Source: Elusimicrobiota bacterium
GTDB lineage: Bacteria; Elusimicrobiota; Elusimicrobia; 2-01-FULL-59-12
Assembly: GCA_041660185.1 (NCBI GenBank)
Contig: JBAZWU010000011.1
Coordinates: 28,883-92,882, forward strand
Direction: 5' to 3'
DNA: 64,000 nt
Shown here: piece by piece, positions 12,450 to 63,900 of the stretch
Numbering within the stretch: position 1 is the first letter of the stretch
Layout: each line of letters starts with the position of its first letter
Notes under the pieces: model-generated
What the model was told of the DNA's origin: nothing
The model's input: only the letters and a program-made list of their open reading frames with translations
Database searches by the model: none
Position numbers and translations under genes: made by a program

Positions 12450-12816
12450 GGGGCTGAATAGGTTCGACAGGATTGGACGGAGCGGACAGTCGCAGGCCCT
12501 GGTTGGTCGAATCCAGGTAAAAAGTCGGCCAAAACACAACTGGCGAATACGCCCTCGCTGCCTAAACAACAGCGTGCCCTCGGCTTTTAAGCTGAGGCGC
12601 TCTCTCCGGCCCCGCCTGTGGGCGGAGTCAGAGCGTCATCATGCAGGCTAGGATCGGTTCTCTCGCCCTGAAGAGCTGATCCGAAATCCAGCAGGGCTAG
12701 TTCTTACGAAGGCCGTTCTCAGCCTGAGTAAGGTCGAAACCTAAAAGGGGACTAAGCTTGTAGGGACCCCGCTAGGCTAATCTTGGACCCGGGTGCAATT
12801 CCCGGCAGCTCCACCA
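12450..12816 (+). ncRNA. ssrA: tmRNA (SsrA), about 367 nt, predicted tag peptide GQNTTGEYALAA
   Basis: The 5' end 'GGGGCUGAAUAGGUUCGACAGG' pairs with the 3' end '...GGACCCGGGUGCAAUUCCCGGCAGCUCCACCA' (a tRNA-Ala-like acceptor/T-arm with a G3:U pair). The internal ORF 'GUC GGC CAA AAC ACA ACU GGC GAA UAC GCC CUC GCU GCC UAA' (12527-12565) ends in the YALAA* degradation tag. Confidence 0.9.
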
Positions 12817-20565: not shown

Positions 20566-20639
20566 TGTGCCCAACTGGACTTGAACCAGTAACCTCAACC
20601 TTCGCAGGGTTGCGCTCTATCCAATTGAGCTATGGGCAC
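20566..20639 (-). tRNA. tRNA-Arg (anticodon GCG as read; A20 identity element present; 3' CCA not encoded)
   Basis: The minus-strand sequence is GTGCCCATAGCTCAATTGGATAGAGCGCAACCCTGCGAAGGTTGAGGTTACTGGTTCAAGTCCAGTTGGGCACA. It folds with a 7-bp acceptor stem, a GCTC/GAGC D-stem, a CAACC/GGTTG anticodon stem with loop CUGCGAA, and a 5-bp T-stem. Confidence 0.8.
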
Positions 20640-36937: not shown

Positions 36938-38592
36938 GACTGAATTTTAGACGAACCTTCTGGCTTCTGGCTGTTCCCCTTGGATTTTTCCAAGCCTGGG
37001 CCCTCCGGTTTAACATGGACCCCGACGGGATTTCTTATCTCGAAGTGGCTCAAGCCTATGCGCAAGGCCGATGGAACGACGCCTTCAACGCCTACTGGAG
37101 CCCGCTCTTTTCATGGATCCTGGCGGTCTTCCTGAAAGTGGTACATCCTTCCTCTTACTGGGAATTTCCGCTGATTCACCTGATCATTTTTTTCATTTAC
37201 CTGTTTGTGCTGGCAAGCTTTGACGACCTGCTCCGGCAGTTCCTGGCCTGGCACAAGACCCCCGCCGCCGATGCGGATCCCGGCTGGCACACGCTTCCGG
37301 AAGCGCTCTGGGAATGGATCGGGTACGCTCTGATTCTCTGGTGCACACTCTGGGCCCTGGGCCTGGCGCAAGCCACACCCAACCTGCTGGTGAGCGGATT
37401 TATTTTTCTGTCGGTCGGAATCGCTTTCCGTCTGCAGCGGGAAAATGTCTCCGGATGGCTTTATGTTTTATCGGGAGTCGTCCTTGGATTCGCTTATTTT
37501 GCCAAAGCCTATGCGTTCCTTTTCGGAGTGGCCTGGATCCTGGGGATGACGGGCGCGGCCTTTCTTCAGCGGCGGCCTATTCGACGTTATGCGCTGACCT
37601 TGGCTGTTTTTATTATCGTAACCGGCCCTTATATAGGCCTGTTGTCCCGGACGAAAAAACACTGGACCTTTGGCGACGCTTCATCCATCAATTACGCGGT
37701 CCATGTCAATCAAGCCCTTCCCTTGCCTTTCTGGACCGGGGATTTCCCGCCTGGCAGCGTGGCCAAACGCCTGGTTCGACAAATCATGAACCATCCGACG
37801 ATTTATGAATTTGATCGAGACATTCCTGCCAGTTTTCCCCTCTGGTATGACCCGGCTTACTGGATGGACGGCTTACGGCCCCGTTTTTCTGTCCGGGATC
37901 ACCTGAGCGCCTGGCGCGGGCATCTGAATGAATACACCCGGCTTCTTTTTTATGAACAGATCAGTCTCTGGACCGGAACGTTGATTCTCTTCGGGATGGC
38001 CCGGCGCTGGAAGCGGCTGATCAAACACGGGTGGCCGCTGCTGGTGCCGGCGCTGATCGGCTTTGGCATCTTCGCTCCGGTGCTGATGGCCAACAGCTAC
38101 ATCGCGCCGTTTATTGTTCTCGGCTGGCTGGGGATTCTGGCTGGGTTGGAATTTCCAACCGATGGGGTCACTTCGCGATGGTTGAGGCGCGTCGCGGGCG
38201 TTATGATCGCTGTCCCGCTTCTGCAAGTCGGTTACCGAATCGTCTCAGTTGTGCCGACGCGTTCAACCCCGTTCCACTGGCAGGTGGCGCAGAAGCTGCA
38301 CGAGTTAGGCCTGCGTCCGGGGGACCGGGTGGCGAGCTTTGACACCGGCTTTGGACAGTTCTGGGCGCATATCGGCGGATTTCGCCTGATCGCTGAAATT
38401 ACCGTTCCTGAGGAAGTGACCCTTATTACTCCGTCGAAGATGACGGAAATCGTTGGGGTCTTACGGGCGAAGGGCATTCGCGCATTCGTGGGACGGCAGG
38501 AACTGATTCCAGAAGACAGCCTCGGCGGCTGGCAACAACTTCACAACACACCTTACGCCGTTTACCTGATCAACCCAACTGAGGGGACGTAG
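36934..38592 (+). CDS. GT-C fold membrane glycosyltransferase (ArnT/PMT-like), paralogue 2 (ATGA overlap with paralogue 1)
   Basis: 'MRLNFRRTFWLLAVPLGFFQAWALRFNMDPDGISYLEVAQAYAQGRWNDAFNAYWSPLFSW' parallels paralogue 1. Its ATG at 36934 overlaps the TGA of the upstream gene. Confidence 0.6.
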   Translation: MRLNFRRTFWLLAVPLGFFQAWALRFNMDPDGISYLEVAQAYAQGRWNDAFNAYWSPLFSWILAVFLKVVHPSSYWEFPLIHLIIFFIYLFVLASFDDLLRQFLAWHKTPAADADPGWHTLPEALWEWIGYALILWCTLWALGLAQATPNLLVSGFIFLSVGIAFRLQRENVSGWLYVLSGVVLGFAYFAKAYAFLFGVAWILGMTGAAFLQRRPIRRYALTLAVFIIVTGPYIGLLSRTKKHWTFGDASSINYAVHVNQALPLPFWTGDFPPGSVAKRLVRQIMNHPTIYEFDRDIPASFPLWYDPAYWMDGLRPRFSVRDHLSAWRGHLNEYTRLLFYEQISLWTGTLILFGMARRWKRLIKHGWPLLVPALIGFGIFAPVLMANSYIAPFIVLGWLGILAGLEFPTDGVTSRWLRRVAGVMIAVPLLQVGYRIVSVVPTRSTPFHWQVAQKLHELGLRPGDRVASFDTGFGQFWAHIGGFRLIAEITVPEEVTLITPSKMTEIVGVLRAKGIRAFVGRQELIPEDSLGGWQQLHNTPYAVYLINPTEGT

Positions 38593-38658
38593 TTGCAACT
38601 TTGCATCGACTACGCCTCTCGTTGGCAAAGACAGCTGCAAAGTTGCAACTACGTCCCC
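38583..38658. repeat. REP pair (BIME-like): 23-bp 'GGGGACGTAGTTGCAACTTTGCA' and its inverted copy separated by 30 bp
   Basis: Forward copy 38583-38605, inverted copy 38636-38658. They sit between convergent gene ends. Confidence 0.85.
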
Positions 38659-52209: not shown

Positions 52210-53367
52210 TTGATGTCTTTGGCTATGAAATCCCCTCACAAACCGGCGTTCGAGCTTCAACTCCTATGCAAACTCCTGGCTTTGCGGCCAAGCCAGGAGG
52301 AATGTCTTTCAGACCTCCGCGCACCAGGTTTTTGCTGGGATCTATTCCTTCAGTTGGCGGAGTACCACGGGGTGATCGGATTTCTCTACGAGGCCCTGAC
52401 CGAAACCGGCCTGGCCCGGGAAGTTCCACCCAAGCTCCTGGAAGCGCTGCGGCATTCCACTCTGGTTCTCCTGGAAGAGCACCTGCAGCACAGGAGCGCG
52501 ATCCGGAAAACGCTGGAAACCCTGAACGCGGCCGGGTTGGAATTTATCGTTATTAAAGGGTGGTCACACGCCGAATCACTTCATGGGAACCCCTGCGCCC
52601 GTCCCATCACGGACCTGGACCTTCTCGTACACGACACGAAGGCGGCTCAAGCCCTGCTGAAACAACAGAGACTGCCGGACCCATCGATCGTAGACTGGCA
52701 TATCTATCCCACAAACACGTCGGATCTGCCGTCCCGCATGCGGTGCCTGCAGCTCGACATCCAGACGCTCTGGGCGGATTCGCGCCTCGCCACGATCACA
52801 GACACGCCGGCGCGCGTTCTTTCTCCGGCTGACCAGGTCATCGCCCTGGTGATCGACTTCACGATTTCGCATGGGTTCGGGAGGCTACTCCTTTTAAAGG
52901 AGATCCTGCTTCTGGCTGAAAAAGTCGGATGGGATGCGCTGGTGAAGAGGGCTCAACTATTCCAGGCTGACATTTTGCTGTACTTGACCCTCCGCATGGG
53001 AGAGGAACTTCTGCGATTCCCGGTTCCCCTCGATATTTTAAAAATCTTAGGGACTCGCTTAAGGCAAGAAGAACACTGGCTGGAAAAACGGCTGATTCAA
53101 AATCCGCTTTTTACCCCGGCCCGGTATTTCTGTATTCCGATTCTCCTGCCTTCCTGGGCCGATCGCCTGAGTTTTGCCAAAGAACTGCTCTGGCCTCCCC
53201 CCTATTGGTTCGAGCTCCGCAGCGAAAAACCGTCTCTCTGGCGCCACCTCATCCATGACGCGACGCTTATCGGCAAGGCATGCGCCATTTTATGGAACGT
53301 CAGGGGACGTAGTTGCAACTTTGCAAAAGGTGCCGGAAAAAATCCTTTTTTCCCCAAGACCGGGTAA
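52210..53367 (+). CDS. uncharacterised nucleotidyltransferase family protein (PF14907/NTP_transf_5-like), RiPP-cluster accessory type
   Basis: 'LNAAGLEFIVIKGWSHAESLHGNPCARPITDLDLLVHDTKAAQALLKQQ' matches the IKG...R..DIDLLV...D signature of this family. Confidence 0.65.
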   Translation: MMSLAMKSPHKPAFELQLLCKLLALRPSQEECLSDLRAPGFCWDLFLQLAEYHGVIGFLYEALTETGLAREVPPKLLEALRHSTLVLLEEHLQHRSAIRKTLETLNAAGLEFIVIKGWSHAESLHGNPCARPITDLDLLVHDTKAAQALLKQQRLPDPSIVDWHIYPTNTSDLPSRMRCLQLDIQTLWADSRLATITDTPARVLSPADQVIALVIDFTISHGFGRLLLLKEILLLAEKVGWDALVKRAQLFQADILLYLTLRMGEELLRFPVPLDILKILGTRLRQEEHWLEKRLIQNPLFTPARYFCIPILLPSWADRLSFAKELLWPPPYWFELRSEKPSLWRHLIHDATLIGKACAILWNVRGRSCNFAKGAGKNPFFPKTG

Positions 53368-53423
53368 AACAAGAAATATAGGCCATTTCCTGTCTCGTTG
53401 TGCAAAGTTGCAACTACGTCCCC
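53303..53423. repeat. REP pair: forward 23-bp REP (53303-53325) and inverted copy (53401-53423) with 75-bp spacer
   Basis: Exact matches to GGGGACGTAGTTGCAACTTTGCA and its reverse complement. They sit between the nucleotidyltransferase and ABC ATPase genes. Confidence 0.85.
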
Positions 53424-53446
53424 TGACGTTTTATATACTCAAACGT

Positions 53447-54190
53447 GTGACTTGTTCCATCGACGTACGGGGTGTTTCGAAATCGTTTTTCCCGCGGCTC
53501 TCTTTATTAAAACCCTGGCAGCCGAGGCCCCCCGTCCGCGCGCTCAATCACGTGAACCTCCGGGTGGAAACAGGAACGGTTTTCGCCCTGCTGGGCCCGA
53601 ATGGTTCCGGCAAAACGACCCTCCTCAAAATCATCAGCACGCTTCTGATGCCGGATGCCGGGACGCTTCGCGTGCTGGGTCACGTCCTGCCGGGGCAGGA
53701 GGAACGCGTCAAAACGCGAATCAGTTTCGCCATGGGAGACGAGCGAAGTTTCTACTGGCGCCTGACCGCCCGGCAGAACTTGATGTTTTTTGCTGCGCTC
53801 TATGATCTTTCCCCCCGGCAATCCGAACAAAAGATCGCTGAACTGGGTGACGTGTTCAGCCTGAAAGACTACCTTGACCGCCCCTACGAAGAACTCTCAT
53901 CCGGGATCCGGCAGCGCCTGGCGATCGCGCGATCCTTTCTGAACGACGCGGCCCTCCTGCTGGCCGATGAACCCACCCGCAGCCTCGATGCGGCCGCCAG
54001 AAACGCGCTTCACGGACTTCTTCAAAAACTCGTGCGGGAACACGGAAAAACGATTCTCTTCACAACGCATAATTTTGAGGAAGCCCGACGGGTGGCGGAC
54101 ACGGTAGGGATTTTGAATCAGGGCCGGCTTTGTTACTCCGGAAAATGGAAAGACGGCCTGGAGAGTTACCTCAATGCCCCCGCTTCGTAA
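53447..54190 (+). CDS. ABC transporter ATP-binding protein
   Basis: 'LLGPNGSGKTTLLKII' is Walker A, 'LSSGIRQRLAIARSF' the signature, 'LLLADEPTRSLD' Walker B. A GTG start at 53447 is chosen downstream of the REP; the listed ORF starts earlier inside repeat DNA. Confidence 0.85.
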   Translation: MTCSIDVRGVSKSFFPRLSLLKPWQPRPPVRALNHVNLRVETGTVFALLGPNGSGKTTLLKIISTLLMPDAGTLRVLGHVLPGQEERVKTRISFAMGDERSFYWRLTARQNLMFFAALYDLSPRQSEQKIAELGDVFSLKDYLDRPYEELSSGIRQRLAIARSFLNDAALLLADEPTRSLDAAARNALHGLLQKLVREHGKTILFTTHNFEEARRVADTVGILNQGRLCYSGKWKDGLESYLNAPAS

Positions 54191-54989
54191 ACTCTGGGCT
54201 TTTTCCCTCCGGGACTGGCAGCTCGCCCAGACGTATCGCTTTACTTTTTTGTTTGAGGTGGTCCGCACGCTGATCTTGCTGCTCTCGTTTTATTTCATCG
54301 GCAAATTGGTCCGGAGCAGCGGTGTTCACCCATCCCTGGCTGTATACGGAGGCGATTACTTTCGCTTCGTCCTTTTGGGCATCGTGTTCAGCGGCTTCAT
54401 GTCCACCGCTCTGGGCAGCGTGCGGCAGACGATTGAATTTGAACGGGGGCATGGGACATTGGAAGCCATTTTACTGACCCCCACTCCCCTGATCACGCTC
54501 GTGATCAACAAAACCCTGTGGGATCTCGGCATGGTCACAGCCAAGGCCGTCCTGTATCTCCTGGCAGGAGTTTACTTTTTTCGAGTGGATCTCTCGCACG
54601 TTTATTGGACCAGCACGCTGGTGGCCATCGCTTTGACAGTCAGCACCTTTTTTGGTTTAGGGCTGATCTCCGCCGGTATTCATTTACTCATCCGGGAAGA
54701 CAGCCCTTTGGACCTGATTTTGGAAGGAGCCTCGCGCTTCCTGGGAGGCGTTTATTTCCCGGTGGCGGTTCTTCCCGCGCCTCTTCTCGCGCTGTCCCGC
54801 TGGGTGCCGCTCACCTATGCGCTCGACGCGATCCGAAAATCCATGATTCTTGGAGCTTCGCTTCAAACCATCCGGATGGAACTACTGGTGCTGGCAGGGT
54901 GTTCGATCGTTCTGGTTCCGATCGGCGTGATCTGTTTTCAGAGCGCTTTCAAGACCGCCCGACGCAGGGGAATTCTCAGCTTCGAGTAG
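54174..54989 (+). CDS. ABC-2 type transporter permease
   Basis: 271 aa, 6 TM. Overlaps the ATPase stop. The ABC-2 family topology is typical. Confidence 0.75.
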   Translation: MPPLRKLWAFSLRDWQLAQTYRFTFLFEVVRTLILLLSFYFIGKLVRSSGVHPSLAVYGGDYFRFVLLGIVFSGFMSTALGSVRQTIEFERGHGTLEAILLTPTPLITLVINKTLWDLGMVTAKAVLYLLAGVYFFRVDLSHVYWTSTLVAIALTVSTFFGLGLISAGIHLLIREDSPLDLILEGASRFLGGVYFPVAVLPAPLLALSRWVPLTYALDAIRKSMILGASLQTIRMELLVLAGCSIVLVPIGVICFQSAFKTARRRGILSFE

Positions 54990-55745
54990 GGTTTTACAAA
55001 GAAAGGCCATCGGCGCTGAAGGTTCCCCAGCCTGCTGGAAACCCAGGGACCGGTAAAGTCGGAGGGCAGCTTGATTATCCGATTCCACCGTTAAACAAAG
55101 TTCTCTGACCCCTTGTTGGCGTGCCGTCCGTATCAGCTCCCCTAACAACAAAGTCGCGATTCCGCCGCCGCGGACCCAAGCGCGGACAAGCAGGTCTTTG
55201 ATGTTTTCCTTTTGATTCGGCTTGACGACGAGAAAAACATAACCGGCTTTCCAAGAACCGATAAAGGCCTGAAAAACAAAGGCGCCCTCTTCTTCCATCC
55301 GATTAATCCGGACCCGCGAAGCCAAATAAACCCTGAACAACACACGGTATAAATGGAAAGACTGGACCCAGGACAAAACCCGGATTCCCGCCATTTTCAC
55401 TTGTCGCTTCATCCAGGAAGGCCCGTATCGAATGAACAGAAAAAGGAAATACCGTCTCCGAAGATCTTTTTCAAGGAAAATTCGGCTTCCCCGTTTGACC
55501 ATTTCCAAGCGACCGATCAATTGATCTTCGCGGATCCATTCGATCGCTAGCGGAAGCTCATCTCCTGCTACTCCGAAATAATTTGGCCCAGCCGACAATC
55601 GCCTGATGCACCTCAACCGGTGAGCCACCGGGTTATCGTGTTCCGTCTGGCGATAAAGCAGGATGTCTCCAATTTTGAGGGTGGTTGATGATGAGAAGGC
55701 CCGGACAAAAAGCTCATCGCCCGGGCGAAGGAAGGGCTGCATACT
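54882..55745 (-). CDS. fusion: S24/S26-type (signal-peptidase/LexA-like) serine peptidase domain + GNAT N-acetyltransferase domain
   Basis: The N-region 'GGSMQPFLRPGDELFVRA...IGDILLYRQ' matches the GDSMxPTL..GD box of Ser-Lys dyad peptidases. The C-region 'VRGGGIATLLLGELIRTARQQGVRELCLTVESDNQAALRLYRSLGF' is the GNAT acetyl-CoA binding motif. The start is placed at the internal Met; the ORF's first residues are REP-encoded. Confidence 0.55.
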   Translation of the reverse strand, partial: SMQPFLRPGDELFVRAFSSSTTLKIGDILLYRQTEHDNPVAHRLRCIRRLSAGPNYFGVAGDELPLAIEWIREDQLIGRLEMVKRGSRIFLEKDLRRRYFLFLFIRYGPSWMKRQVKMAGIRVLSWVQSFHLYRVLFRVYLASRVRINRMEEEGAFVFQAFIGSWKAGYVFLVVKPNQKENIKDLLVRAWVRGGGIATLLLGELIRTARQQGVRELCLTVESDNQAALRLYRSLGFQQAGEPSAPMAFLCKTLLEAENSPASGGLESALKTDHADRNQNDRTPCQHQ

Positions 55746-55785
55746 GCCACCCTCGGCCCGGCAGAAAAACGAGCCGGGAGCACTA

Positions 55786-55863
55786 GGGGACGTAGTTGCA
55801 ACTTTGCATAAGGTATTCATATGACACAAGATACCTTTGATGCAAAGTTGCAACTACGTCCCC
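55786..55863. repeat. REP pair: forward REP (55786-55808) and inverted copy (55841-55863) around a palindromic 32-bp spacer
   Basis: Exact 23-bp matches. The spacer 'taaggtattcatatgacacaagatacctttga' is itself an inverted repeat. Confidence 0.85.
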
Positions 55864-55887
55864 TGGCGGTCTTTCGCGACATCTCCG

Positions 55888-56091
55888 TCAGGACGTGGTG
55901 GCGCCGGAATCCCGGGCGGTTGTCACGCTTGCCCGCCGGCAACCGTTGGAGGTCCGACATCCCTTTGTTCCTCTGACAGACAAGCTGGTGCCGCTTCGTG
56001 TGCATGTGCTGAGAATGGCCTGCTCCCGGCGGAGCACAACTTGGGTGATTTGCGGGGACTGATACGGCTTTTTTTCAGTTACAGTCGTCAT
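55888..56091 (-). CDS. candidate RiPP precursor peptide (67 aa: leader MTTVTEKKPYQSPQITQVVLRREQAIL; Cys/Ser/Thr/Arg-rich core)
   Basis: The ATG starts immediately after the TAA of the upstream radical SAM gene. A strong SD 'AGAGGGAGAG' lies 5-14 nt upstream. My translation gives MTTVTEKKPYQSPQITQ... as listed. The core has 3 Cys and 18 Ser/Thr. Confidence 0.5.
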   Translation of the reverse strand: MTTVTEKKPYQSPQITQVVLRREQAILSTCTRSGTSLSVRGTKGCRTSNGCRRASVTTARDSGATTS

Positions 56092-57141
56092 TTAGCTCTC
56101 CCTCTGTGCGATAAACATCGCTTTTTTCTCCGCGACTTCCCGAAAATAGGGCATGCAAGGGGCATCAAATGCTTTTTGGTCCAACCAACCATCCATGCTT
56201 CCCCGATCGCAATGAAACGCGATCGGACAGGATGAGCACGCGTAGGCAGGGCCCGGCTTCTGCGCCGCGACAAACTTCACCAACGTTTGCCAGCCTTTTT
56301 CAACCGACCCCGCCGTCACATCATACGACGGATGATGGATGCAGACACAAAGATTCATCCGGCCATGAGGCGTCAAAGCGGCGTTGCTCTTGCCACAAAG
56401 ACAATCGAACAGTTTCCCGGCGGAACCGCATTTCCCCTCCAAGGATCCGCCGGCCTCTTGCATTGGCTTTCCGCTATTTTCACGCCATATCTCGAAAACC
56501 CTGGCAGGCGACAACCGGTACATCAAGGGTTCTTTTGAACCGTCCACTCTGGGATAGATGTCCGTGCCGATCCGATAGGGCAGTTGACGGGACCGGGCGA
56601 AGTCTTTCATGGGCTCCAGTTCGTGTTCATTCAGCGTCATCAAAACGAGTTTCAGCAGGATGGGGATATGCCTTTCTTTCAGCCAATCAACCCCCTCGAC
56701 AAAATGAGCGTAGGAACCGGGGATGCGCGTCACAGATTCATAACTGTCAGCCGTGGCGCCATAAACGGAAATTTCCACCAGATAAGGATCCAACTCCGCC
56801 ATCTGATCCGCCAGCGCCGGCGTGATCAGAGTGGCGTTCGTAGTGATCGTAATCACCATCCCAAGTGAGCGGGCATACCGCATAATCTCACAGGCATCCC
56901 GCCGGGTGAACACCTCTCCTCCGGTGAAACCGATCCACAGGCATCCCTGAGCCGCCATCTCATCTAACAGTCGGTAAACCTGTTCCGTGGTCAGTTCCTG
57001 TTTCGCTTCGTGGGTTGTGTTATAACAGTGCACGCAGCGCAGGTTGCAGCCGTACGTCAGCTCCACCGTGGCCTGAATCCACTGCGGACGGGCCTTGGCG
57101 TCCTCACTCAGCTGATCGATGAATTGATCAAACTCTTTCAT
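56092..57141 (-). CDS. radical SAM/SPASM domain peptide-modifying enzyme (rSAM-1)
   Basis: 'TYGCNLRCVHCY' is CxxxCxxC. The C-terminal Cys-rich SPASM region is 'CGSAGKLFDCLCGKS...CVCIHH...CSSCPIAFHCDRG'. The start is placed at 'MKEFDQ' (14-nt overlap with the kinase gene). Confidence 0.85.
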   Translation of the reverse strand: MKEFDQFIDQLSEDAKARPQWIQATVELTYGCNLRCVHCYNTTHEAKQELTTEQVYRLLDEMAAQGCLWIGFTGGEVFTRRDACEIMRYARSLGMVITITTNATLITPALADQMAELDPYLVEISVYGATADSYESVTRIPGSYAHFVEGVDWLKERHIPILLKLVLMTLNEHELEPMKDFARSRQLPYRIGTDIYPRVDGSKEPLMYRLSPARVFEIWRENSGKPMQEAGGSLEGKCGSAGKLFDCLCGKSNAALTPHGRMNLCVCIHHPSYDVTAGSVEKGWQTLVKFVAAQKPGPAYACSSCPIAFHCDRGSMDGWLDQKAFDAPCMPYFREVAEKKAMFIAQRES

Positions 57142-58012
57142 AAAGATAACGGACGATACGGTTGTCTTGAGTAAAGCGCAGTTCGCCGCTGGGAACATCC
57201 TTGACCAGGCGGGTCGCTGCCTCCACGAGCCGTGCCATGGCTTCCTGATTCCAAAGAGGCAAATACGCTTCCGTGAAAATCGATTTCAATACGGGCTGAG
57301 GCGGCCGCGGGAGAAACTGATTGTCCGTCGCCTGGACCAGAACTGAAAAACGCTTGAGAAGCGCTGCCCCCTTGGAAACCTGCCGAAGCTCGCCGTGCCA
57401 GGGCGTTCCCGCTACGTGCCAGTGTTTTCCCTCCCGCCAGAGAAGAATACGCTCGTCATTCAGCACCTGAGCGGAAGAATGTGTCCGGAAGAGCCTGGAA
57501 ATCGTGGTCTTGCCGGCGCCGGAGTGACCGATGAATGCCAGCCCCTTGCCCGACAGAGAAACCGCTGCCCCATGCAAAATCATCCCTTTCCTCCGAAGCG
57601 CCAGCCAGCCGGTCAGCCACCATTGGATCAAAGGCTCGGCCACATCTCCCAGGTACCACCCCTTCTGGCGAAGCCCGGGTGACCGGTACGTGAGCGGAAT
57701 CAGATGGAGATCGATTTGATCCCACTTCGGGGTGATGAAACACACCTGCCTGGGCAGAAAATGCATTTGTTCCAGAATTTCCAATCGCACTCTGCCCCTC
57801 TCCTGGTAGACGCGCCATTGATTGGGAAGCTCATAAAGGAAGCGGGGCTTCCCATGCGGCTTGGGCGCATCGGTCCGGACCTGGATGGTCACGGTCGGCG
57901 GGAGAGAATTTCTGTCTTCAAAGACACCGCAAAATTCATGCGGCCAATCATGCGGCGGGGTATCCGCGATAAATCGAATGACGGCAGGGCCGATTTTGAT
58001 AGTGAGCTTCAT
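57128..58012 (-). CDS. HPr kinase/phosphorylase C-terminal-domain-like protein (HprK-related kinase)
   Basis: 'GMILHGAAVSLSGKGLAFIGHSGAGKTT' is a P-loop in the HprK-C context. It overlaps the rSAM-2 stop (ATGA) and the rSAM-1 start. Confidence 0.7.
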   Translation of the reverse strand: MKLTIKIGPAVIRFIADTPPHDWPHEFCGVFEDRNSLPPTVTIQVRTDAPKPHGKPRFLYELPNQWRVYQERGRVRLEILEQMHFLPRQVCFITPKWDQIDLHLIPLTYRSPGLRQKGWYLGDVAEPLIQWWLTGWLALRRKGMILHGAAVSLSGKGLAFIGHSGAGKTTISRLFRTHSSAQVLNDERILLWREGKHWHVAGTPWHGELRQVSKGAALLKRFSVLVQATDNQFLPRPPQPVLKSIFTEAYLPLWNQEAMARLVEAATRLVKDVPSGELRFTQDNRIVRYLYERV

Positions 58013-59274
58013 GACGATGCCCCCTCACCCCTACCCTCCCCCTCAACAGGGGGAGGGAGCGTAAGATTTTTCGCGGATGTATCCCCTCTCCCTGCTGAGG
58101 GAGAGGGGCTGGGGGTGAAGGTCAAGATGCTGGCAGTTTGCCGAGCTTTCGCTACTTCACAGAAATAAGGGACCGGCGCTTCCATGGACCCTGCCTCATG
58201 GATCGCCATCACGGGATTTTTGTCGCAGAACAGATGGGAGGAACAACTCCGGCACGCCGACTCCCCGGTGTAGCGGGCCTGATTGATTTCCTCGGCTGAG
58301 CGCTGGAACGCCTCGGAAACAGGGATCGTTTTCAGATCATACGACGGCCAGGTGGTGAACGTGCAGGGGCGAAACACACCGTACGGACTGACCGTCAATT
58401 GATTGGTCCCGCATCCGCAGCGAAAGAGCCGGTCATCCGGGGGGGGACCCTCACCCCAACCCTCCCCCTCAACAGGGGGAGGGAGTATGAAATCTGCGGG
58501 GGATCCCCCCTCTCCCTGTTGAGGGAGAGGGCAAGCAGGACGACCGCTAGGTCGGACAGGCGCGGGTGAGGGTTTACACTCCTCTGCCACCTCCAGTTCA
58601 GCCACCTCGGCTCCAGATAACCGGTACTGCGTGGAGGAAAGGTCCCCGTTCAAACGCGGGTAAATCGTGGGATAGAGACTGAAATCCACCCCCAATCCTT
58701 CCACGTACGCTCTGATCTCGCCCAATTCCTGACGATTAACGGTCATGGCCTTGGTTTTGATCGCCACCGACAAACGCCGGTCCAGTAACCGGCGGATCCC
58801 TGCCTGAAAACACGCGTAGGAACCCGGCACCTGGGTCACCCGCTCAAAGGTCTCGGCACGAACGCCATGCAAACTCACCTCCAACTGAAAGGGAGGGTCC
58901 TTGGCGAGAAAATCCGCGATCTCGTCCGTGATCGTTGTCCCGTTGGTGAATAACGCGATCAGGAATCCTCTCTCCTTGGCCGCACGATATATATCCTTGA
59001 ATCGCGGATGAAGTACCGCTTCTCCTCCGGTGAGGGTAAGCCAGAGCACGCCGGCGGAGGCCAGGTCGTCAAGAATCCGGATCATTCCCGGCAGCGGCAA
59101 TTCCCGCGACAACGCCGTCGGGGTGTTAAAGGGGTCTGTAAAACAATGGACGCAATGGAGATTACATCGGTAAGTCAGTTCCAACTGTGCCTTGAGAGGA
59201 CTCCGATTTTCGACGCTCCGGGAAAAGACCCGGGCGCTGAACACACTGTACATTTCTTCTTGAAACTTGCTCAT
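58009..59274 (-). CDS. radical SAM/SPASM domain enzyme (rSAM-2) carrying in-frame repeat-encoded P/G/E-rich linker and C-terminal tail
   Basis: 'TYRCNLHCVHCF' is the rSAM motif. SPASM 'CGCGTN...CTFTT...CRSCSSHLFCDK'. The segment 'PLPQQGEGGSPADFILPPPVEGEGWGEGPPP' between the rSAM and SPASM domains and the tail 'LPPPVEGEGRGEGASS' are encoded by the palindromic repeats at 58447-58572 and 58021-58120. Confidence 0.8.
   Translation of the reverse strand: MSKFQEEMYSVFSARVFSRSVENRSPLKAQLELTYRCNLHCVHCFTDPFNTPTALSRELPLPGMIRILDDLASAGVLWLTLTGGEAVLHPRFKDIYRAAKERGFLIALFTNGTTITDEIADFLAKDPPFQLEVSLHGVRAETFERVTQVPGSYACFQAGIRRLLDRRLSVAIKTKAMTVNRQELGEIRAYVEGLGVDFSLYPTIYPRLNGDLSSTQYRLSGAEVAELEVAEECKPSPAPVRPSGRPACPLPQQGEGGSPADFILPPPVEGEGWGEGPPPDDRLFRCGCGTNQLTVSPYGVFRPCTFTTWPSYDLKTIPVSEAFQRSAEEINQARYTGESACRSCSSHLFCDKNPVMAIHEAGSMEAPVPYFCEVAKARQTASILTFTPSPSPSAGRGDTSAKNLTLPPPVEGEGRGEGASS
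58021..58120. repeat. P/G/E-coding palindromic 'GEG' repeat, copy C (overlapping rSAM-2 3' end / HprK-like start)
   Basis: 'cccctcacccctaccctccccctcaacagggggagggag...cccctctccctgctgagggagaggggctgggggtgaagg'. Confidence 0.8.
58447..58572. repeat. P/G/E-coding palindromic 'GEG' repeat, copy D (long variant), inserted in-frame inside rSAM-2
   Basis: 'ccctcaccccaaccctccccctcaacagggggagggag...cccccctctccctgttgagggagagggcaagcaggacgaccgctaggtcggacaggcgcgggtgaggg'. It shares its tail with copy A (26757-26886). Confidence 0.8.
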
Positions 59275-59397: not shown

Positions 59398-61575
59398 TTA
59401 AATGGTTTGGACAGCACCGATCGCCCGAAGTTCCGACAAATACGTCGCGACGTCCTGTTCGGCAACAGCGGAATCCACTGTAAATGCTTTTCCCAGCAAC
59501 GCTGTCAGTTCCCGGCCCGTACGCCGGCCGTCAATCTGTTCCCACAGGAAAGCGCCGACCTCATTCAACGTATAAAGAGATGGCTCCTGATTCGGCTGCC
59601 GGTTCGCGGGAACCAGAACCATCTCCCCCGCCACCCGGCGGGCCACCATCGTCGGGCACTTTTGAAACCGAAAATCCAGCTGTTCTGTTGAAGCCGCCAT
59701 GATCGTTCCTCCGCTTTTTTTCAGGTTCTGTATGATGCTGTTCCAGTTCTGTCGGGCGGCCGGCCACTCCGGGTCCAACTCCATCAAGCGCTCGTATTCC
59801 CGCAGGGCCGGTTCCCACTGTTTGAGAAATTCTTCCTTGTAAGCGGGCGTAGCATACAACGTTCGATAAGAGGGGTCCAGGGAAATCATCCGCTCCCAGG
59901 CTTCCCGGGCCGACGGGACATCGTTCCGCCCGAGGGCTTCGCAGACTTGCTCATAAACGCGCGCCGCCGAGCCGGCAGGCGGTTGATCCTCGACGAGAGC
60001 AGCGGGATCCAGCAGCGCGCGCTGAATGAGATCGCCGAAATATTTGTACCGCAGCGGCGTGTATCCTTTATTGACCGAGTACGAAAGGGTCACAAAGTCC
60101 GTCGGCAGCTCAACGGCCCGGAGACGCCGGAGAAAGTGACTCGGCTGCAGCCAGGGACCGGCGTAGTCGCTGTCAAAATACGGAAACAATCCAGTCCCGT
60201 CGATGTGGCGAGTCAGGAGATAATCCACATCGATGTCCAGGAGAACCGGTTTTATAAAGCGGGGCAGCGACTCCAGCCGGCACACCGTCAACGGGCATCC
60301 CATCAATAGGAGATGAATCCCTGTCTCGGAAACCCGTAAAGGGCCTGCCGAATCCGGTCTCGCATGAATCATTTCGTTAATCCATTGAATGAGTTTCTGC
60401 CGTTGGTCAGGGGTTTCCCAAAAACCATCAGGGATGACCCAATAAAGCTCGCGGATGAAGCCTTCCCGGATGGCTGGATAAAGGAAATTACCACTGTCCA
60501 TCGCTTTATGCGGAGGATGGTCATCGATCCAGAAAAAATCCAGATGACCGTCCAGATGAATCAGGGTTCGGCCCTGGACTCCAGCGTCTTTCCAGAGGGT
60601 GTAGGCCGTCTCATGATCTTCCATCAGATGGATCGACTTCGAAGGAATCGGATCAGCCGCCGCCAGGGATTTCTTTCGGGGGCAGGGAAAGCTCGGCAGC
60701 GCTTTGTAAAACCCTTCCAGAAAGGAGCCTCGTCTCAAGTCGTAGCTGGCCCGCCGGTTGTTGGAACACAGCTGAAGCTGCCCGTACGCATCGATGTGGA
60801 ATTTGTAGCGTCCCCCCTGACAGGGGAAGTCATCGGGGTATGTGGCGTGGCCGTCACGCTCCCGCTCCGCCCAGAGCTGAGGGTCCTGACGCTCGATGGC
60901 CGCCAGGTCTTTGTCGGACAACTGGAATCGCAGAGGGGCTCCACTGCCGGTCAGATCATCGAGCAGGTGTTCTCCAAACTGAAAAGACACGCCGGGACCG
61001 AAGTCGTCCACATAACGTTTGATCGCCAAAATCTCGTCCCGGTTCAGCGTCGTCCCCACTGTTTTCAACGTCACCGGGATCTGCCGTTCCATCAAAAGCC
61101 GAACCGCCTCCACATTCAGGGGACGTAGTTGCAACTTTGCACAAACAGCATCAGAGATCGCATGAAGGCTGATTTCCACCCGCACGGGAGGCATCCTGGC
61201 CCATTGATCGGCGATCTCGCGCGTGATGAGCGTTCCATTGGAGAAAACCGTAATGAGAAATCCAAAACGGTGAGCGGTTTCATAAATCTCCATGAAATCA
61301 GGCCGGCACAGCGGCTCCCCGCCGGTGAACGTGACTTCCAGGCAACCCGCGGCCTGGATCTCATGGAGAATGCGAAGGATGTCAGCGGTAGGAAGCTCCT
61401 GACGGATCCGCTCCGGCGTATTGAAACAATCCGTATAGCACATGGCACACGTCAGATTGCACCGGCAGGTGAGTTCCCACTGGCCGACCAAAGGAGCGCG
61501 ACCCTGGAGAGAACGGGCCAAGACTTGATCGCCGAAAACCTGCGATGAGCGGGTCGGGAAAGCGGGGATGGCCAT
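59398..61575 (-). CDS. multidomain protein: radical SAM (twitch/SPASM-like) domain + ~300-aa uncharacterised domain + TPR-like segment + C-terminal PqqD-like (RRE) domain (rSAM-3)
   Basis: 'LTCRCNLTCAMCY' is the rSAM cluster motif. The middle has a 'HLDGHLDFFWIDD' metal-site-like motif. The C-terminus 'LYTLNEVGAFLWEQIDGRRTGRELTALLGKAFTVDSAVAEQDVATYLSELRAIGAV' matches the PqqD fold pattern. The start is placed at 'MAIPAF'; the listed ORF starts within a REP. Confidence 0.75.
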   Translation of the reverse strand: MAIPAFPTRSSQVFGDQVLARSLQGRAPLVGQWELTCRCNLTCAMCYTDCFNTPERIRQELPTADILRILHEIQAAGCLEVTFTGGEPLCRPDFMEIYETAHRFGFLITVFSNGTLITREIADQWARMPPVRVEISLHAISDAVCAKLQLRPLNVEAVRLLMERQIPVTLKTVGTTLNRDEILAIKRYVDDFGPGVSFQFGEHLLDDLTGSGAPLRFQLSDKDLAAIERQDPQLWAERERDGHATYPDDFPCQGGRYKFHIDAYGQLQLCSNNRRASYDLRRGSFLEGFYKALPSFPCPRKKSLAAADPIPSKSIHLMEDHETAYTLWKDAGVQGRTLIHLDGHLDFFWIDDHPPHKAMDSGNFLYPAIREGFIRELYWVIPDGFWETPDQRQKLIQWINEMIHARPDSAGPLRVSETGIHLLLMGCPLTVCRLESLPRFIKPVLLDIDVDYLLTRHIDGTGLFPYFDSDYAGPWLQPSHFLRRLRAVELPTDFVTLSYSVNKGYTPLRYKYFGDLIQRALLDPAALVEDQPPAGSAARVYEQVCEALGRNDVPSAREAWERMISLDPSYRTLYATPAYKEEFLKQWEPALREYERLMELDPEWPAARQNWNSIIQNLKKSGGTIMAASTEQLDFRFQKCPTMVARRVAGEMVLVPANRQPNQEPSLYTLNEVGAFLWEQIDGRRTGRELTALLGKAFTVDSAVAEQDVATYLSELRAIGAVQTI
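61119..61141. repeat. single REP copy lying in-frame inside the rSAM-3 coding sequence (encodes ...AKLQLRPL...)
   Basis: Exact 23-bp 'ggggacgtagttgcaactttgca'. Protein length around it appears normal for the rSAM fold. Confidence 0.8.
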
Positions 61576-61592: not shown

Positions 61593-62621
61593 TCAGGGGA
61601 CGTAGTTGCAACTTTGCATATTGAGTCTTTCCTTAAGCTCAAACCGATGGGCCAGGCGCTGACCTCGTTCAAATGCCCTGCTGGCGGTGCTCGTTGATAG
61701 AACGAGTTGCTTCCCCATCCCGGTGACAGATTGCTTAAACCAGACTACTCCGGCATATACCGCCATGGCCTTCGCATCTGACAGCGCGCGCCGCTGACCC
61801 GTTTCGGAAAAGTAATGGGGGTCTTCTCCGGTCAGATCGGCAATAAGATCCAATACCTTTTCAAAATTGATTGATTTTGGAATGGGCGTTTCATCACAAC
61901 CGTCTTTCGCCTTGCGCAGGGTTTCTTCCACAAAAGCACTGTCCCCCAGCAAACGTAGGTCGTACGCGTAGGCTTCACCGCTTCTGATGGCCTGCAGAGC
62001 AGGACCTCCCCCTCCCCAACTACGAATAAGTCCGCCTCCTTCTAACTGGTCCTGTCGTTTCTGACTCCAAGCCTCCATTACAAATAATTCGTAGTTTGCC
62101 CGCGCCTGGCGCAAAGTCGGGCCAAAACGTTCAAGAACTTTCCCGGCAACCTGCCAGGGCCTGTCTAAGGTACCCATCAGAGCCGAGTGGCTTGTCCAAG
62201 GATAGACAGCCAGTTCAGAAGGCGATCGGACAATTCCCGCGCGCACTGGGTTAAGAGCGATATAACGTATCAGCTCCAGAAAATAGGGATCCTCCTGACA
62301 GATGATGTCCTTGTATCGGTTTTGAAACAAATGACCGGCGCGCTGATAGCGCAGGTTAAATGAGACGGCATACCCAGTCAAAAGCTTTTGCATGACCCGA
62401 GAAATGCGCGTGGAAGCCGTCTGGAGCAACAGGTGCAGGTGATTAGGCATGAGCGCCCAGGCGTAACAGAGGGTTTTCGTTTCTTGGAGGATGCGACCTA
62501 ACCGGTCGGCGAATTCGGAGTAATCTCGATTTGATCTAAAAATAGAGCGTTTTTCAATTCCCCTCGCGATTACGTGATGAAAGAGTCCAGGGAAGTCGAT
62601 ACGAGGTAAACGTGGCATCAC
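61593..62621 (-). mobile_element. REP-associated tyrosine transposase (RAYT; IS200/IS605-family Y1 HUH transposase) with ~190-aa C-terminal extension, flanked by inverted REPs (61596-61618 and 62665-62687)
   Basis: 'MPRLPRIDFPGLFHHVIARGIEKRSIFRSNRDYSEFADRL...YAWALMPNHLHLLLQT' contains the HuH motif (HLH) and the Y1 architecture. The REP at its 3' end encodes the C-terminal '...MQSCNYVP'. An inverted REP with 1 mismatch lies 44 bp upstream of the start. Confidence 0.75.
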
Positions 62622-62697
62622 TTACTTAGATAAAGTTTTTGGCGATATATTCGAGGGGGTGCTATGAAAAGTTGCAACTACGTCCCCTGACGTTGGT

Positions 62698-63900
62698 TTA
62701 GCGCATCAGGTTCAGGACGTATTGCTGGCCTTCTTCGAATTGACCGCGATGAACAGGGTTTAAATCCCGGATAAATAGTTCCGCCTGCCATTGTTCAAAA
62801 ATCACGAAGTCAAACACCCGGTTCATGCCGCATTCGATCCCTGTCCCGCGAAAAAGACCGGCCTGCAGGGAAGCCGGGAACCGCTCCAACTGCCGGGGGA
62901 ACCGGGCAGAGCAACGCATGTCGGTTCTCCACAAGTCGTACAAAAACCCTCCGACTCCTTCGAGAAAGGGGTCCCGCTGCGAAGCCGCCAGATGACTGAC
63001 CCGCTCGTCCAACCAGGGGGCCATGCGGGCGAAGCTCGGATCCATGCTGTACCAATAGCGGGCCGACAATCGGCCGGCTGTCCTCAAAAATGAATGGGCC
63101 CTGGGATCATCCGGCAGAGAAGGAATGGCCCGCCGCAATTTGATCAAGTGTTCGGACCGCAGAGGAAATTCCTTCCCTTCCCCAAATGACAACCCCAGGA
63201 ATGCCTGCTCCGAGCAGCGAGGTGAAATTCGATCAAAGACCCGGCCTGTCTCCAAAGCCCTTTTTGGAACCCAGGCGTCCCGCCGCAAGACCGGCTCAGC
63301 CAGAGAGAAGCAGAGATAGTTTTTCCACATGTCCGGCGCCTTCTCCGCCTCTTCGATCAAAATCGCCTCGCCATGGGGCTGAGGATTGTTCCACGCAACG
63401 AACTGCGTGACCGCGGCGGTTAACTCGGCGGCGTCTTCCGGCCCCAGACGTCCGATCAGGCGCTCGTAGTAGCGCCGGCAGGCTTCGCTGGAGGAAGCAA
63501 AAACCGCCGGCAGATACTGGTACGTGTATCCCTTGGCCGTCAGGCAGCGCCCGATGCTGGCTGTCGAGAAAAATGAAATGCTGGACAGGATGCCGCCGCT
63601 GATCAACAAACCCACGACCCACTTTGCGTTCAAACAACTCATCGCCCAGGCCGCCGCCAGGAAGATAAACGGCAGCGCGGGGATCCGGTACCGCATAATA
63701 TCCAACTCCGGACTCGCCGACTGCAGCACGACAACAAAAATAAATAGAGTCAGGACACTCAACCGGATGAGGGGAGGAACAGCTTTTTTCACCCGCCAGA
63801 CCGATAAGGCGGTCATCCCCCCAAACAAAACGCTATAGAGAGCATCCACCCAAAGACGCTGTCGGGAAGGCCACTCTTCGCTGGCAAACGATTTAGCCAA
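62698..63900 (-). CDS. hypothetical membrane-anchored protein
   Basis: 400 aa. N-terminal TMs ('LSVLTLFIFVVVLQ', 'ALPFIFLAAAWAM', 'VVGLLISGGILSSISFF') are followed by a large soluble domain. No family recognised. Confidence 0.4.
   Translation of the reverse strand: MAKSFASEEWPSRQRLWVDALYSVLFGGMTALSVWRVKKAVPPLIRLSVLTLFIFVVVLQSASPELDIMRYRIPALPFIFLAAAWAMSCLNAKWVVGLLISGGILSSISFFSTASIGRCLTAKGYTYQYLPAVFASSSEACRRYYERLIGRLGPEDAAELTAAVTQFVAWNNPQPHGEAILIEEAEKAPDMWKNYLCFSLAEPVLRRDAWVPKRALETGRVFDRISPRCSEQAFLGLSFGEGKEFPLRSEHLIKLRRAIPSLPDDPRAHSFLRTAGRLSARYWYSMDPSFARMAPWLDERVSHLAASQRDPFLEGVGGFLYDLWRTDMRCSARFPRQLERFPASLQAGLFRGTGIECGMNRVFDFVIFEQWQAELFIRDLNPVHRGQFEEGQQYVLNLMR

Follow-up and report, generated by a model that had tools for sequence, protein, structure and literature searches.

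Introduction

Linear polyphosphorylated peptides (LPPs) are peptides that are made on ribosomes and modified after translation (RiPPs), described from Bacillota (Popov et al., Nat Commun 2026; PMC13381572). Their leader reads YxxPxVLxHQxIxFETxxS, the kinase LppK polyphosphorylates core Ser3, and the peptidase requires a RiPP recognition element (RRE) (PMC13381572). Published work gives [Y/W]xxPx[L/V/I/F/A] as the RRE-binding motif, and the kit of a signal-peptidase-I-like (SpI-like) leader peptidase, an RRE, an HprK-like kinase and an NTP transferase has been shown experimentally in LPPs, in a paper that makes no mention of radical SAM enzymes, Nitrospira or Elusimicrobia (PMC13381572). In paeninodin-type lasso peptides, an HprK-like kinase phosphorylates the highly conserved C-terminal Ser of the precursor, and the nucleotidyltransferase-like protein PsmN acts on phospho-Ser in a lasso system (PMC9266682). 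Here we describe a 67-codon open reading frame (ORF), together with the gene cluster around it, in a 64,000-nucleotide stretch of DNA (the window) from the metagenome-assembled genome (MAG) of an Elusimicrobiota bacterium (assembly GCA_041660185.1, contig JBAZWU010000011.1, positions 28,883 to 92,882). We consider it probable that this ORF encodes a genuine RiPP precursor that is matured with the help of an RRE, radical SAM (rSAM; SAM, S-adenosylmethionine) enzymes, a kinase-like protein, a peptidase and an exporter. We hold with high confidence that the product is a genuine precursor peptide, and with moderate to low confidence that the specific chemistry is right.

A conserved family of precursor peptides

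The precursor gene follows rSAM-1, one of three radical SAM genes in the cluster, and its product is annotated merely as a hypothetical protein (WC859_09165) in the source MAG. Its features, all on the minus strand of the window, are as follows.

55888-56091: precursor peptide gene, 67 codons plus TGA, identified by ORF scan, translation and family membership
56098-56103: Shine-Dalgarno sequence AGGGAG, within the last rSAM-1 codons (…Q R E S, stop), 6 nt before the precursor ATG
56091-56008: predicted leader, aa 1-28
56007-55891: predicted core, aa 29-67
56047-56073: leader motif KKPYQSPQI, aa 7-15, matching the lasso-type [Y/W]xxPx[L/V/I] RRE-binding motif
56008-56025: leader end EQAILS, aa 23-28, with cleavage predicted after Ser28
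55939-56004: Cys codons C30 (56004-56002), C45 (55959-55957) and C51 (55941-55939), the last followed by Arg52
55891-55911: tail DSGATTS at the C terminus, closing with Ser67 (55893-55891)

A first-pass annotation, made from the DNA letters and a list of ORFs, had proposed this ORF as a precursor that starts directly after the rSAM-1 stop codon behind a well-spaced AGGGAG. Both details are borne out: the ATG (56091-56089) abuts the rSAM-1 TAA (56094-56092) with zero gap, and AGGGAG occupies 56103-56098. Re-translation gave a peptide identical to the one first proposed, MTTVTEKKPYQSPQITQVVLRREQAILSTCTRSGTSLSVRGTKGCRTSNGCRRASVTTARDSGATTS, with Cys at residues 30, 45 and 51. The accompanying description, of a RiPP precursor translationally coupled to rSAM-1 with a hydrophilic, Pro/Gln-containing leader ending near …EQAIL-S and a Cys-containing core, is likewise supported. 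Two smaller statements need correcting: the genome had been called high in GC and the region is about 55% GC, and 18 Ser/Thr had been claimed for the core where 17 are counted in residues 28-67. A second assembly of the run SRR18595301 (Logan contig L042) is identical across window positions 54032-58477 and carries the 67-aa gene call as well.

A protein search with the single 67-aa sequence returned only the peptide itself. This reflects the limit of a word-indexed search and not orphan status, as a profile built from syntenic ORFs did find a family. Homologues of rSAM-1 are numerous (45-61% identity) and were used as the route to relatives of the precursor. All six of the rSAM-1-homologue contigs that were opened are syntenic, each with a homologous ORF of 63-76 aa bearing the same leader, which lies after rSAM-1 in four (L001-L004) and precedes rSAM-1 in L005 and the P-loop gene in L006; the ORF of L004 is absent from existing gene calls. 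The resulting seven-peptide profile matched 206 proteins at E <= 1 among 5.8 billion, the best near 1e-24, and the 120 of these that were listed are 46-84 aa long, have no Pfam domain and are unnamed or called 'hypothetical protein'. With a 69-member profile, 1.84 billion cluster representatives (a 50%-identity representative library, in which the clusters are counted) gave 685 matches at E <= 1e-3 and 141 at E <= 1e-10, and the best 150 of the 685 are 43-103 aa long. Checking the peptide against existing models, as the first-pass annotation had suggested, yielded nothing: Pfam gave no match for the window peptide (E up to 1) or for 69 family members, and NCBIfam gave none for the window peptide and seven members (E up to 10). 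No paper covering the peptide family was found in the open-access literature.

Alignment of 291 unique family sequences gives a sharp signature. The leader consensus is [KR][KR]P-Y-x-x-P-x-[ILV]-x-R-V-x-L-x-x-E-Q-A-[IV]-L-[S/G/A/T]-x-C, in which Tyr is conserved in 99% of members, the Pro after it in 100% and the I/L/V after Px in 97%; at the leader end, Q is present in 100%, A in 97%, I/V in 99%, L in 99% and a last residue of S/G/A/T in 99%. Three Cys follow the leader in 268/291 sequences (92%). Conservation of their spacing, a check that had been called for at the outset, was measured over these 268: C1 and C2 are 15-16 residues apart in 220, and C2 and C3 are 4-8 apart in 232. Directly after C3 comes K/R in 95% of the family, positions -6 to -4 from the C terminus are enriched for D/N-S-G, and 282/291 sequences (97%) end in Ser. 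The window peptide agrees at every point (C30, C45, C51-R52, DSGATTS). The stretch from Tyr-3 to Cys1+1 has high information content and the core has little, save at the Cys, the K/R and the terminal Ser; a conserved leader joined to a variable core is what is expected of a RiPP precursor. A codon comparison of 50 genes from the fetched loci gave, for close pairs, ratios of nonsynonymous to synonymous substitution (dN/dS) of 0.16 over the leader codons and 0.29 over those of the core, so the frame of the precursor ORF is under purifying selection. A Shine-Dalgarno-like motif also stands upstream of 46/52 family genes.

Could the ORF nevertheless be spurious, a chance open frame behind an rSAM gene? 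As many as 96 ORFs of at least 50 aa overlap positions 48-64 kb, the single-sequence search found no relative, and by itself the precursor ORF is within chance expectation. It is raised above chance by conservation, because its homologues, the profile matches, the dN/dS values (below 0.3) and the Shine-Dalgarno motifs all attest to it: hundreds of homologues, spread over at least five phyla, keep the frame, the length, the Cys positions and the terminal Ser. The first-pass annotation, which judged the ORF unlikely to be spurious, had staked its claim on what stands beside homologous clusters and on the fate of the frame in relatives; an equivalent small ORF was found at every locus examined, and the frame is kept across phyla. 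We regard the chance of a spurious ORF as practically negligible, and the window peptide belongs to a large family, as yet unnamed, of short precursor peptides that contain Cys.

A conserved gene cluster

Searching genomes with the peptide alone can show whether the same enzymes recur beside it. A pattern built from the seven-sequence peptide alignment was scanned against one genome per species and recovered 35 loci, mostly from Nitrospira/Nitrospiraceae MAGs but also from Elusimicrobiota, Bacteriovoracaceae, a deltaproteobacterium and an acidobacterium. The same gene set is shared by 33 of the 35: a PqqD-type RRE, rSAM-3, rSAM-2, one or more precursors, a P-loop kinase-like protein and rSAM-1. 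The small ORF thus adjoins a cluster of modifying enzymes, as a RiPP precursor would. By local hidden Markov models (HMMs), a signal-peptidase-like protein is present in 33/41 loci and an NTP_transf_5 protein in 35/41, and most of the loci that miss one of these are truncated contigs or two orphan copies of the precursor; the gene content of one locus (L014) was also checked with Pfam. These orphan copies have no cluster gene within 10 kb, one being intact (L025, 9932-10186) and the other frameshifted in its core (L040, 10001-10240). In the window, the cluster comprises the following genes.

52210-53367, plus strand: NTP_transf_5 nucleotidyltransferase-fold protein (PF14907, 3e-26)
53174-54190, plus strand: ABC transporter ATPase (ABC_tran, 1e-28 over ORF aa 124-268)
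54174-54989, plus strand: ABC-2 type transporter permease (Pfam ABC2_membrane), syntenic in L001-L005 and L024
54882-55820, minus strand: SpI-like domain (archaeal/SipW type) fused to a GNAT acetyltransferase (TIGR02228 8e-10, SipW 2e-3, GNAT)
56092-57141, minus strand: rSAM-1, radical SAM/SPASM (Pfam Radical_SAM), 349 aa by gene callers, the ORF reaching 57198
57128-58012, minus strand: HprK-related/ScmC-like P-loop protein, 294 aa, putative peptide kinase (PF27840 ScmC on record)
58009-59274, minus strand: rSAM-2, radical SAM/SPASM (Pfam), best solved relative SkfB
59398-61575 (or 61611), minus strand: rSAM-3, 737 aa, with a C-terminal PqqD-type RRE at about 59413-59625 (Pfam Radical_SAM and PqqD)

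From upstream to downstream, the minus strand carries a REP-associated tyrosine transposase (RAYT) gene, the rSAM-3/PqqD fusion, rSAM-2, the P-loop protein, rSAM-1, the precursor, an inverted repeat and the peptidase-GNAT gene, with the plus-strand genes for NTP_transf_5, the ABC ATPase and the ABC-2 permease convergent on them. Upstream of the RAYT gene is a 400-aa ORF (62698-63900, minus strand) with no Pfam or NCBIfam match. Across the window, Rfam gave only two matches above the gathering score, a tmRNA gene (12450-12816, plus strand, 139 bits) and a tRNA gene (20566-20639, minus strand).

In Nitrospira loci, a cluster holds between one and three tandem precursor genes, alike in leader and different in core (L007, L009, L011-L013, L023, L026, L029, L031 and L033, at about 9.6-10.4 kb in locus coordinates). 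A five-Cys subtype of 75-76 aa occurs in L007, L013, L019, L021 and L023.

Proposed leader recognition

Translation of the precursor would be coupled to that of rSAM-1 through the Shine-Dalgarno sequence in the 3' end of the upstream gene, an arrangement in which the adjacency and the motif are both observed. The PqqD-type RRE would then bind the leader at KKPYxxPx[ILV] and present the peptide to the enzymes, as the motif and the homology of the RRE suggest. The family profile of this RRE matches, in order, TbiB1, PbaB1, LppB, TfuB1 and only then PqqD; by this ranking it appears closest to the recognition elements of lasso peptides and LPPs. It is fused to rSAM-3 in the window and discrete in relatives. 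On the peptide side, the profile picked up a single chain in the PDB, that of the lasso leader TfuA, MEKKKYTAPQLAKV; at E 0.92 this is a lead and not a significant match, and it falls precisely on the RRE-binding motif. A [Y/W]xxPx[L/V/I/F/A] motif and a cognate PqqD-type RRE in the same cluster are the two marks of an RRE-dependent lasso-type leader, and both are present.

A PqqD-type RRE could also point to the precursor of a small redox cofactor, similar to pyrroloquinoline quinone (PQQ) or mycofactocin, and not to an exported peptide. The mycofactocin maturase and PqqE are among the sub-threshold NCBIfam matches, PqqE is among the closest solved relatives of the radical SAM enzymes, and the peptide has a conserved C-terminal motif. 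Against this, the precursors vary in their cores and form tandem paralogues, the clusters conserve an ABC exporter and a leader peptidase, genes of a cofactor pathway are absent, and the RRE is nearer to lasso/LPP RREs than to PqqD. A cofactor precursor is therefore very unlikely in our estimation, and we return to an exported, modified peptide.

Radical SAM enzymes and the cysteine triad

In both rSAM-1 and rSAM-2, CxxxCxxC is accompanied by eight conserved C-terminal Cys, a SPASM-like pattern in keeping with the maturases of sactipeptides and ranthipeptides. By comparison, rSAM-3 has CxxxCxxC plus just three conserved C-terminal Cys, and its middle region is TPR-like in orthologues. By sequence, rSAM-2 has its closest solved relative in SkfB, and rSAM-1 in PqqE, with SkfB almost level. 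An AlphaFold2 (AF2) model of rSAM-1 with a mean predicted local distance difference test score (pLDDT) of 89.7 has its best fold matches in PqqE, MoaA, CteB, SuiB, BlsE, SkfB and anSME; the model places rSAM-1 among the peptide-modifying SPASM/twitch enzymes and leaves the chemistry unfixed. Most likely, the radical SAM enzymes would turn the three conserved Cys into intramolecular thioethers of the sactipeptide or ranthipeptide type.

A genuine precursor may instead be acted on by radical SAM enzymes that make C-C crosslinks, epimerize residues or oxidize Cys. The fit of the rSAM-1 model to CteB and SkfB is about equalled by its fit to PqqE and SuiB, which make C-C crosslinks, to anSME, which oxidizes, and to the epimerase EpeE, and the spacing of the Cys is unlike that of classic sactipeptide hairpins. 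The HMMs of thioether maturases are also all below cutoff: of the curated sactipeptide and ranthipeptide families (SCIFF, AlbA, SkfB, PapB, StsB and others), none was reached at cutoff by the maturases, which scored 46-101 bits against cutoffs of 265-850, and none was matched by the peptide. On the other hand, the three Cys are the most conserved positions of the core, and SkfB is the closest solved relative of rSAM-2 and nearly level with PqqE for rSAM-1. Where such systems have been characterised, a SPASM enzyme that comes with a Cys-bearing core usually yields thioethers, which we also count against a different chemistry. We rate such a chemistry as unlikely, though well worth keeping in mind; within it, the Cys would serve as metal ligands, disulfides or recognition residues.

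Thioether formation, if it is the chemistry used, need not follow a simple tally. The first-pass annotation had set three Cys against three radical SAM genes, and an assignment of one enzyme to each Cys was tried and rejected because five-Cys paralogues occur in the same three-rSAM clusters; moreover, only two of the three enzymes carry the eight-Cys SPASM pattern.

Proposed phosphorylation, leader removal and export

The HprK-related protein would phosphorylate the near-invariant C-terminal Ser, as paeninodin-type lasso kinases do. Among 12 orthologues, HprK_rel_B was matched by 12 (best 1e-9), HprK_rel_A by 11, ScmC by nine and HPr kinase by four, all below cutoff. A profile of the family found HPr kinase/phosphorylase structures in the PDB (E 0.004 across 59 residues), and GPSGAGKT and [N/S/G]DER are invariant within the family. 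Phosphorylation of Ser/Thr in general, as first suggested, now seems less likely than a single defined site, the C-terminal residue being the sole near-invariant Ser outside the leader. Once phosphorylated, the peptide may be further decorated by the NTP_transf_5 protein. A lanthipeptide-like route (phosphorylation, elimination, Michael addition) was also considered and rejected because no lyase or cyclase domain is seen in the cluster by Pfam.

A Ser at the junction of leader and core could instead be the target, either Ser28 or the Ser that most members have behind Cys1, much as LppK acts on core Ser3 in LPPs. The phospho-Ser of LPPs lies 18 residues past the motif Tyr (PMC13381572), Ser28 likewise stands at Tyr+18, and 82% of members have Ser directly after Cys1. 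However, Tyr+18 is Ser in just 84% and G/A/T otherwise, which fits the -1 position of a protease site better than an acceptor, and the window peptide has Thr after Cys1. The C-terminal Ser, at 97%, is conserved as it is in kinase-associated lasso precursors (PMC9266682). A junction site is credible but improbable in our view, and we favour the C-terminal Ser.

Leader removal would fall to the SpI-like protease, cutting after [IV]-L-[S/G/A] so that the core begins x-C. The end of the leader, with I/V at -3 and a small residue at -1, has the look of a signal-peptidase site. Both the TIGR02228 and the SipW matches of the peptidase are below cutoff; its GSM…HRL…GD residues (Ser, His, Asp) align with those of orthologues. 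The fused GNAT domain may modify the new N terminus, with a methyltransferase as the partner in relatives. This tailoring partner varies between loci, from the GNAT fusion of the window to a methyltransferase fusion in L002 (9248-10438), and L006 (9139-10742) has two separate methyltransferases. The ABC-2 transporter would then export the product.

Repeat elements and the state of the local cluster

In the window, the cluster has been invaded by a repetitive extragenic palindromic (REP) sequence. The 24-mer GGGGACGTAGTTGCAACTTTGCAT occurs in nine copies against none expected, mostly as inverted pairs (REPINs). The relevant features are as follows.

38583-38658, 53303-53423, 55778-55871, 61119-61142, 61596-61619 and 62664-62687: REP/REPIN sites
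61593-62621, minus strand: RAYT gene, inside the biosynthetic cluster and flanked by two REP copies
61119-61142, plus strand: REP copy inside rSAM-3, in frame at about aa 157-166, replacing F-E-x-[IV]-T-x-x-x-G-S-Y-x-R-C
55778-55871, no strand assigned: REPIN (inverted REP pair, 94 nt) between the precursor and peptidase genes

The segment of rSAM-3 that was replaced is close to invariant elsewhere, as F is present in 34 of 34 orthologues, T in 32, G in 32, S in 33 and C in 31, and the replacement also deletes four residues. From this comparison, the window copy of rSAM-3 is probably inactivated, with its frame still open. The REPIN at 55778-55871 forms a predicted RNA hairpin of -62.9 kcal/mol (z -9.7), with the ATG of the peptidase-GNAT gene at 55820 in its loop and aa 4-12 encoded by one arm, where the N-terminal sequence of relatives differs. 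Gene callers start this gene at ATG 55742 instead, which has its own Shine-Dalgarno-like GAGGGTGG. The real start of the ABC ATPase gene probably lies downstream of the REPIN at 53303-53423.

The local pathway may thus be partly disabled, given the REP damage to rSAM-3 and to the 5' end of the peptidase gene, with the precursor gene intact. Taken further, this damage might mean that the source genome holds a decaying remnant of the cluster, in which an intact precursor is made into no mature product: a REP copy sits in place of an invariant rSAM-3 segment, a REPIN overlaps the peptidase start, callers begin past the putative catalytic Ser, and a RAYT gene is located within the cluster. Every reading frame is nonetheless open, the replacement in rSAM-3 is in frame, and the precursor retains all hallmarks of the family together with its Shine-Dalgarno sequence. 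Decay is a possibility that we take seriously for this genome, while holding it to be the less probable state.

Points against the proposed pathway

Several observations weigh against the pathway of recognition, crosslinking, C-terminal phosphorylation, leader removal and export set out above. All of its chemical steps are inferred. No HMM match to a named RiPP maturase, an HprK-related kinase or a signal peptidase reaches its curated cutoff, and the fold matches of the radical SAM enzymes do not separate thioether formation from C-C crosslinking, epimerization or Cys oxidation. In the case of the kinase-like protein, the single-sequence AF2 model has a pLDDT of 33 and its fold is unusable, the LPP kinase targets core Ser3 and not a C-terminal Ser, and Ser is common (82-84%) just before and after Cys1. 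As for the window copy itself, rSAM-3 is without its invariant segment, and a peptidase that starts at 55742 loses the putative catalytic Ser of GGS-MQPF.

Implications

The window peptide is a candidate for a new RiPP family, and the interpretation first placed on it was essentially right. The precursor is usually the missing part of orphan radical SAM/PqqD cassettes, and here it has been identified with a sharp sequence signature. This makes a widespread uncharacterised cluster directly testable, the 685 clusters coming mainly from Nitrospira and other uncultured lineages. A Pfam or NCBIfam model could also be built from the signature, which would keep these genes from being overlooked or from staying a 'hypothetical protein'.

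A broader claim can be made more tentatively. Together with its eight-gene cluster, the peptide family may amount to a new class of RiPP in which a lasso/LPP kit is joined with three radical SAM enzymes acting on a Cys triad, a proposal to which we give somewhat short of an even chance. If it is true, the peptide produced would carry thioether bridges and a C-terminal phosphate, and perhaps glycosylation too, and it would be the characteristic RiPP of Nitrospira, found also in Elusimicrobiota, Acidobacteriota and bdellovibrio-like bacteria. Nitrospira are the main nitrite oxidisers. The family would also extend the use of signal-peptidase-like leader peptidases, reported recently, beyond Bacillota. 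A WasteFams preprint, considered as a source on radical SAM RiPPs of Nitrospira, proved to be unrelated.

Comparison with known systems

The cluster links two lines of RiPP research, SPASM-type Cys crosslinking and the lasso/LPP kit, which are separate in the open-access literature, where we found no paper describing that kit together with three radical SAM enzymes and a Cys triad. Its likeness to LPP systems is broad. The leader has YxxPx[V/L/I], its Tyr preceded by a Lys at a distance of two or three residues, each cluster has one to three precursor genes, LppB ranks with the best PDB matches of the RRE, and the set of SpI-like peptidase, RRE, HprK-like kinase and NTP transferase is present, although these similarities are remote and sub-threshold. 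The differences are equally clear. Beyond YxxPx[ILV] the leader does not share the LPP consensus and reads xRVxLxxEQA[IV]LSxC. LPP clusters are without radical SAM enzymes, of which three are conserved here, so this is not a phosphorylation-only class. The LPP transporter is MsbA-like and the one in the window cluster is of the ABC-2 type, LPP cores lack the conserved Cys triad and the C-terminal Ser, and LPPs come from Bacillota, whereas the window family occurs in Nitrospirota, Elusimicrobiota and others.

Lasso peptides of the paeninodin/pseudomycoidin kind share the lasso-type leader (the TfuA match), a B1-type RRE, the conserved C-terminal Ser, an HprK-like kinase and a nucleotidyltransferase. 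However, neither a lasso cyclase (the asparagine-synthetase-like C protein) nor a B2 cysteine protease was found by Pfam among the cluster genes at 52.2-63.9 kb, and a three-Cys core with radical SAM partners takes the place of a macrolactam acceptor. Sactipeptide and ranthipeptide systems (SkfA/SkfB, CteA/CteB, SCIFF, PapA/PapB) also have a small Cys-bearing precursor beside radical SAM/SPASM maturases, with SkfB close by sequence and CteB among the best fold matches of rSAM-1. They differ in that the maturases of the window cluster have no fused N-terminal RRE, the RRE being discrete or, in the window, fused to rSAM-3, and in that the window type of cluster has three paralogous radical SAM enzymes, a kinase-like protein, a nucleotidyltransferase and an SpI-like peptidase.

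The last comparison is with the SynChlorMet (SCM) cassette of NCBIfam/TIGRFAMs, on which no paper was found in the open-access literature. It shares two PqqE-like radical SAM/SPASM proteins, a PqqD homologue and a ScmC-like protein; ScmE, ScmF, ScmD and ScmC are among the sub-threshold matches, and PF27840 (ScmC) is on record for the window protein. All four equivalog models fell short, with scores of 12.4 against a cutoff of 125, 23.6 against 100, and 69.4 and 73.3 against 400. Judged by these scores, the window cluster is a sister system of the SCM cassette and not an SCM cassette itself.

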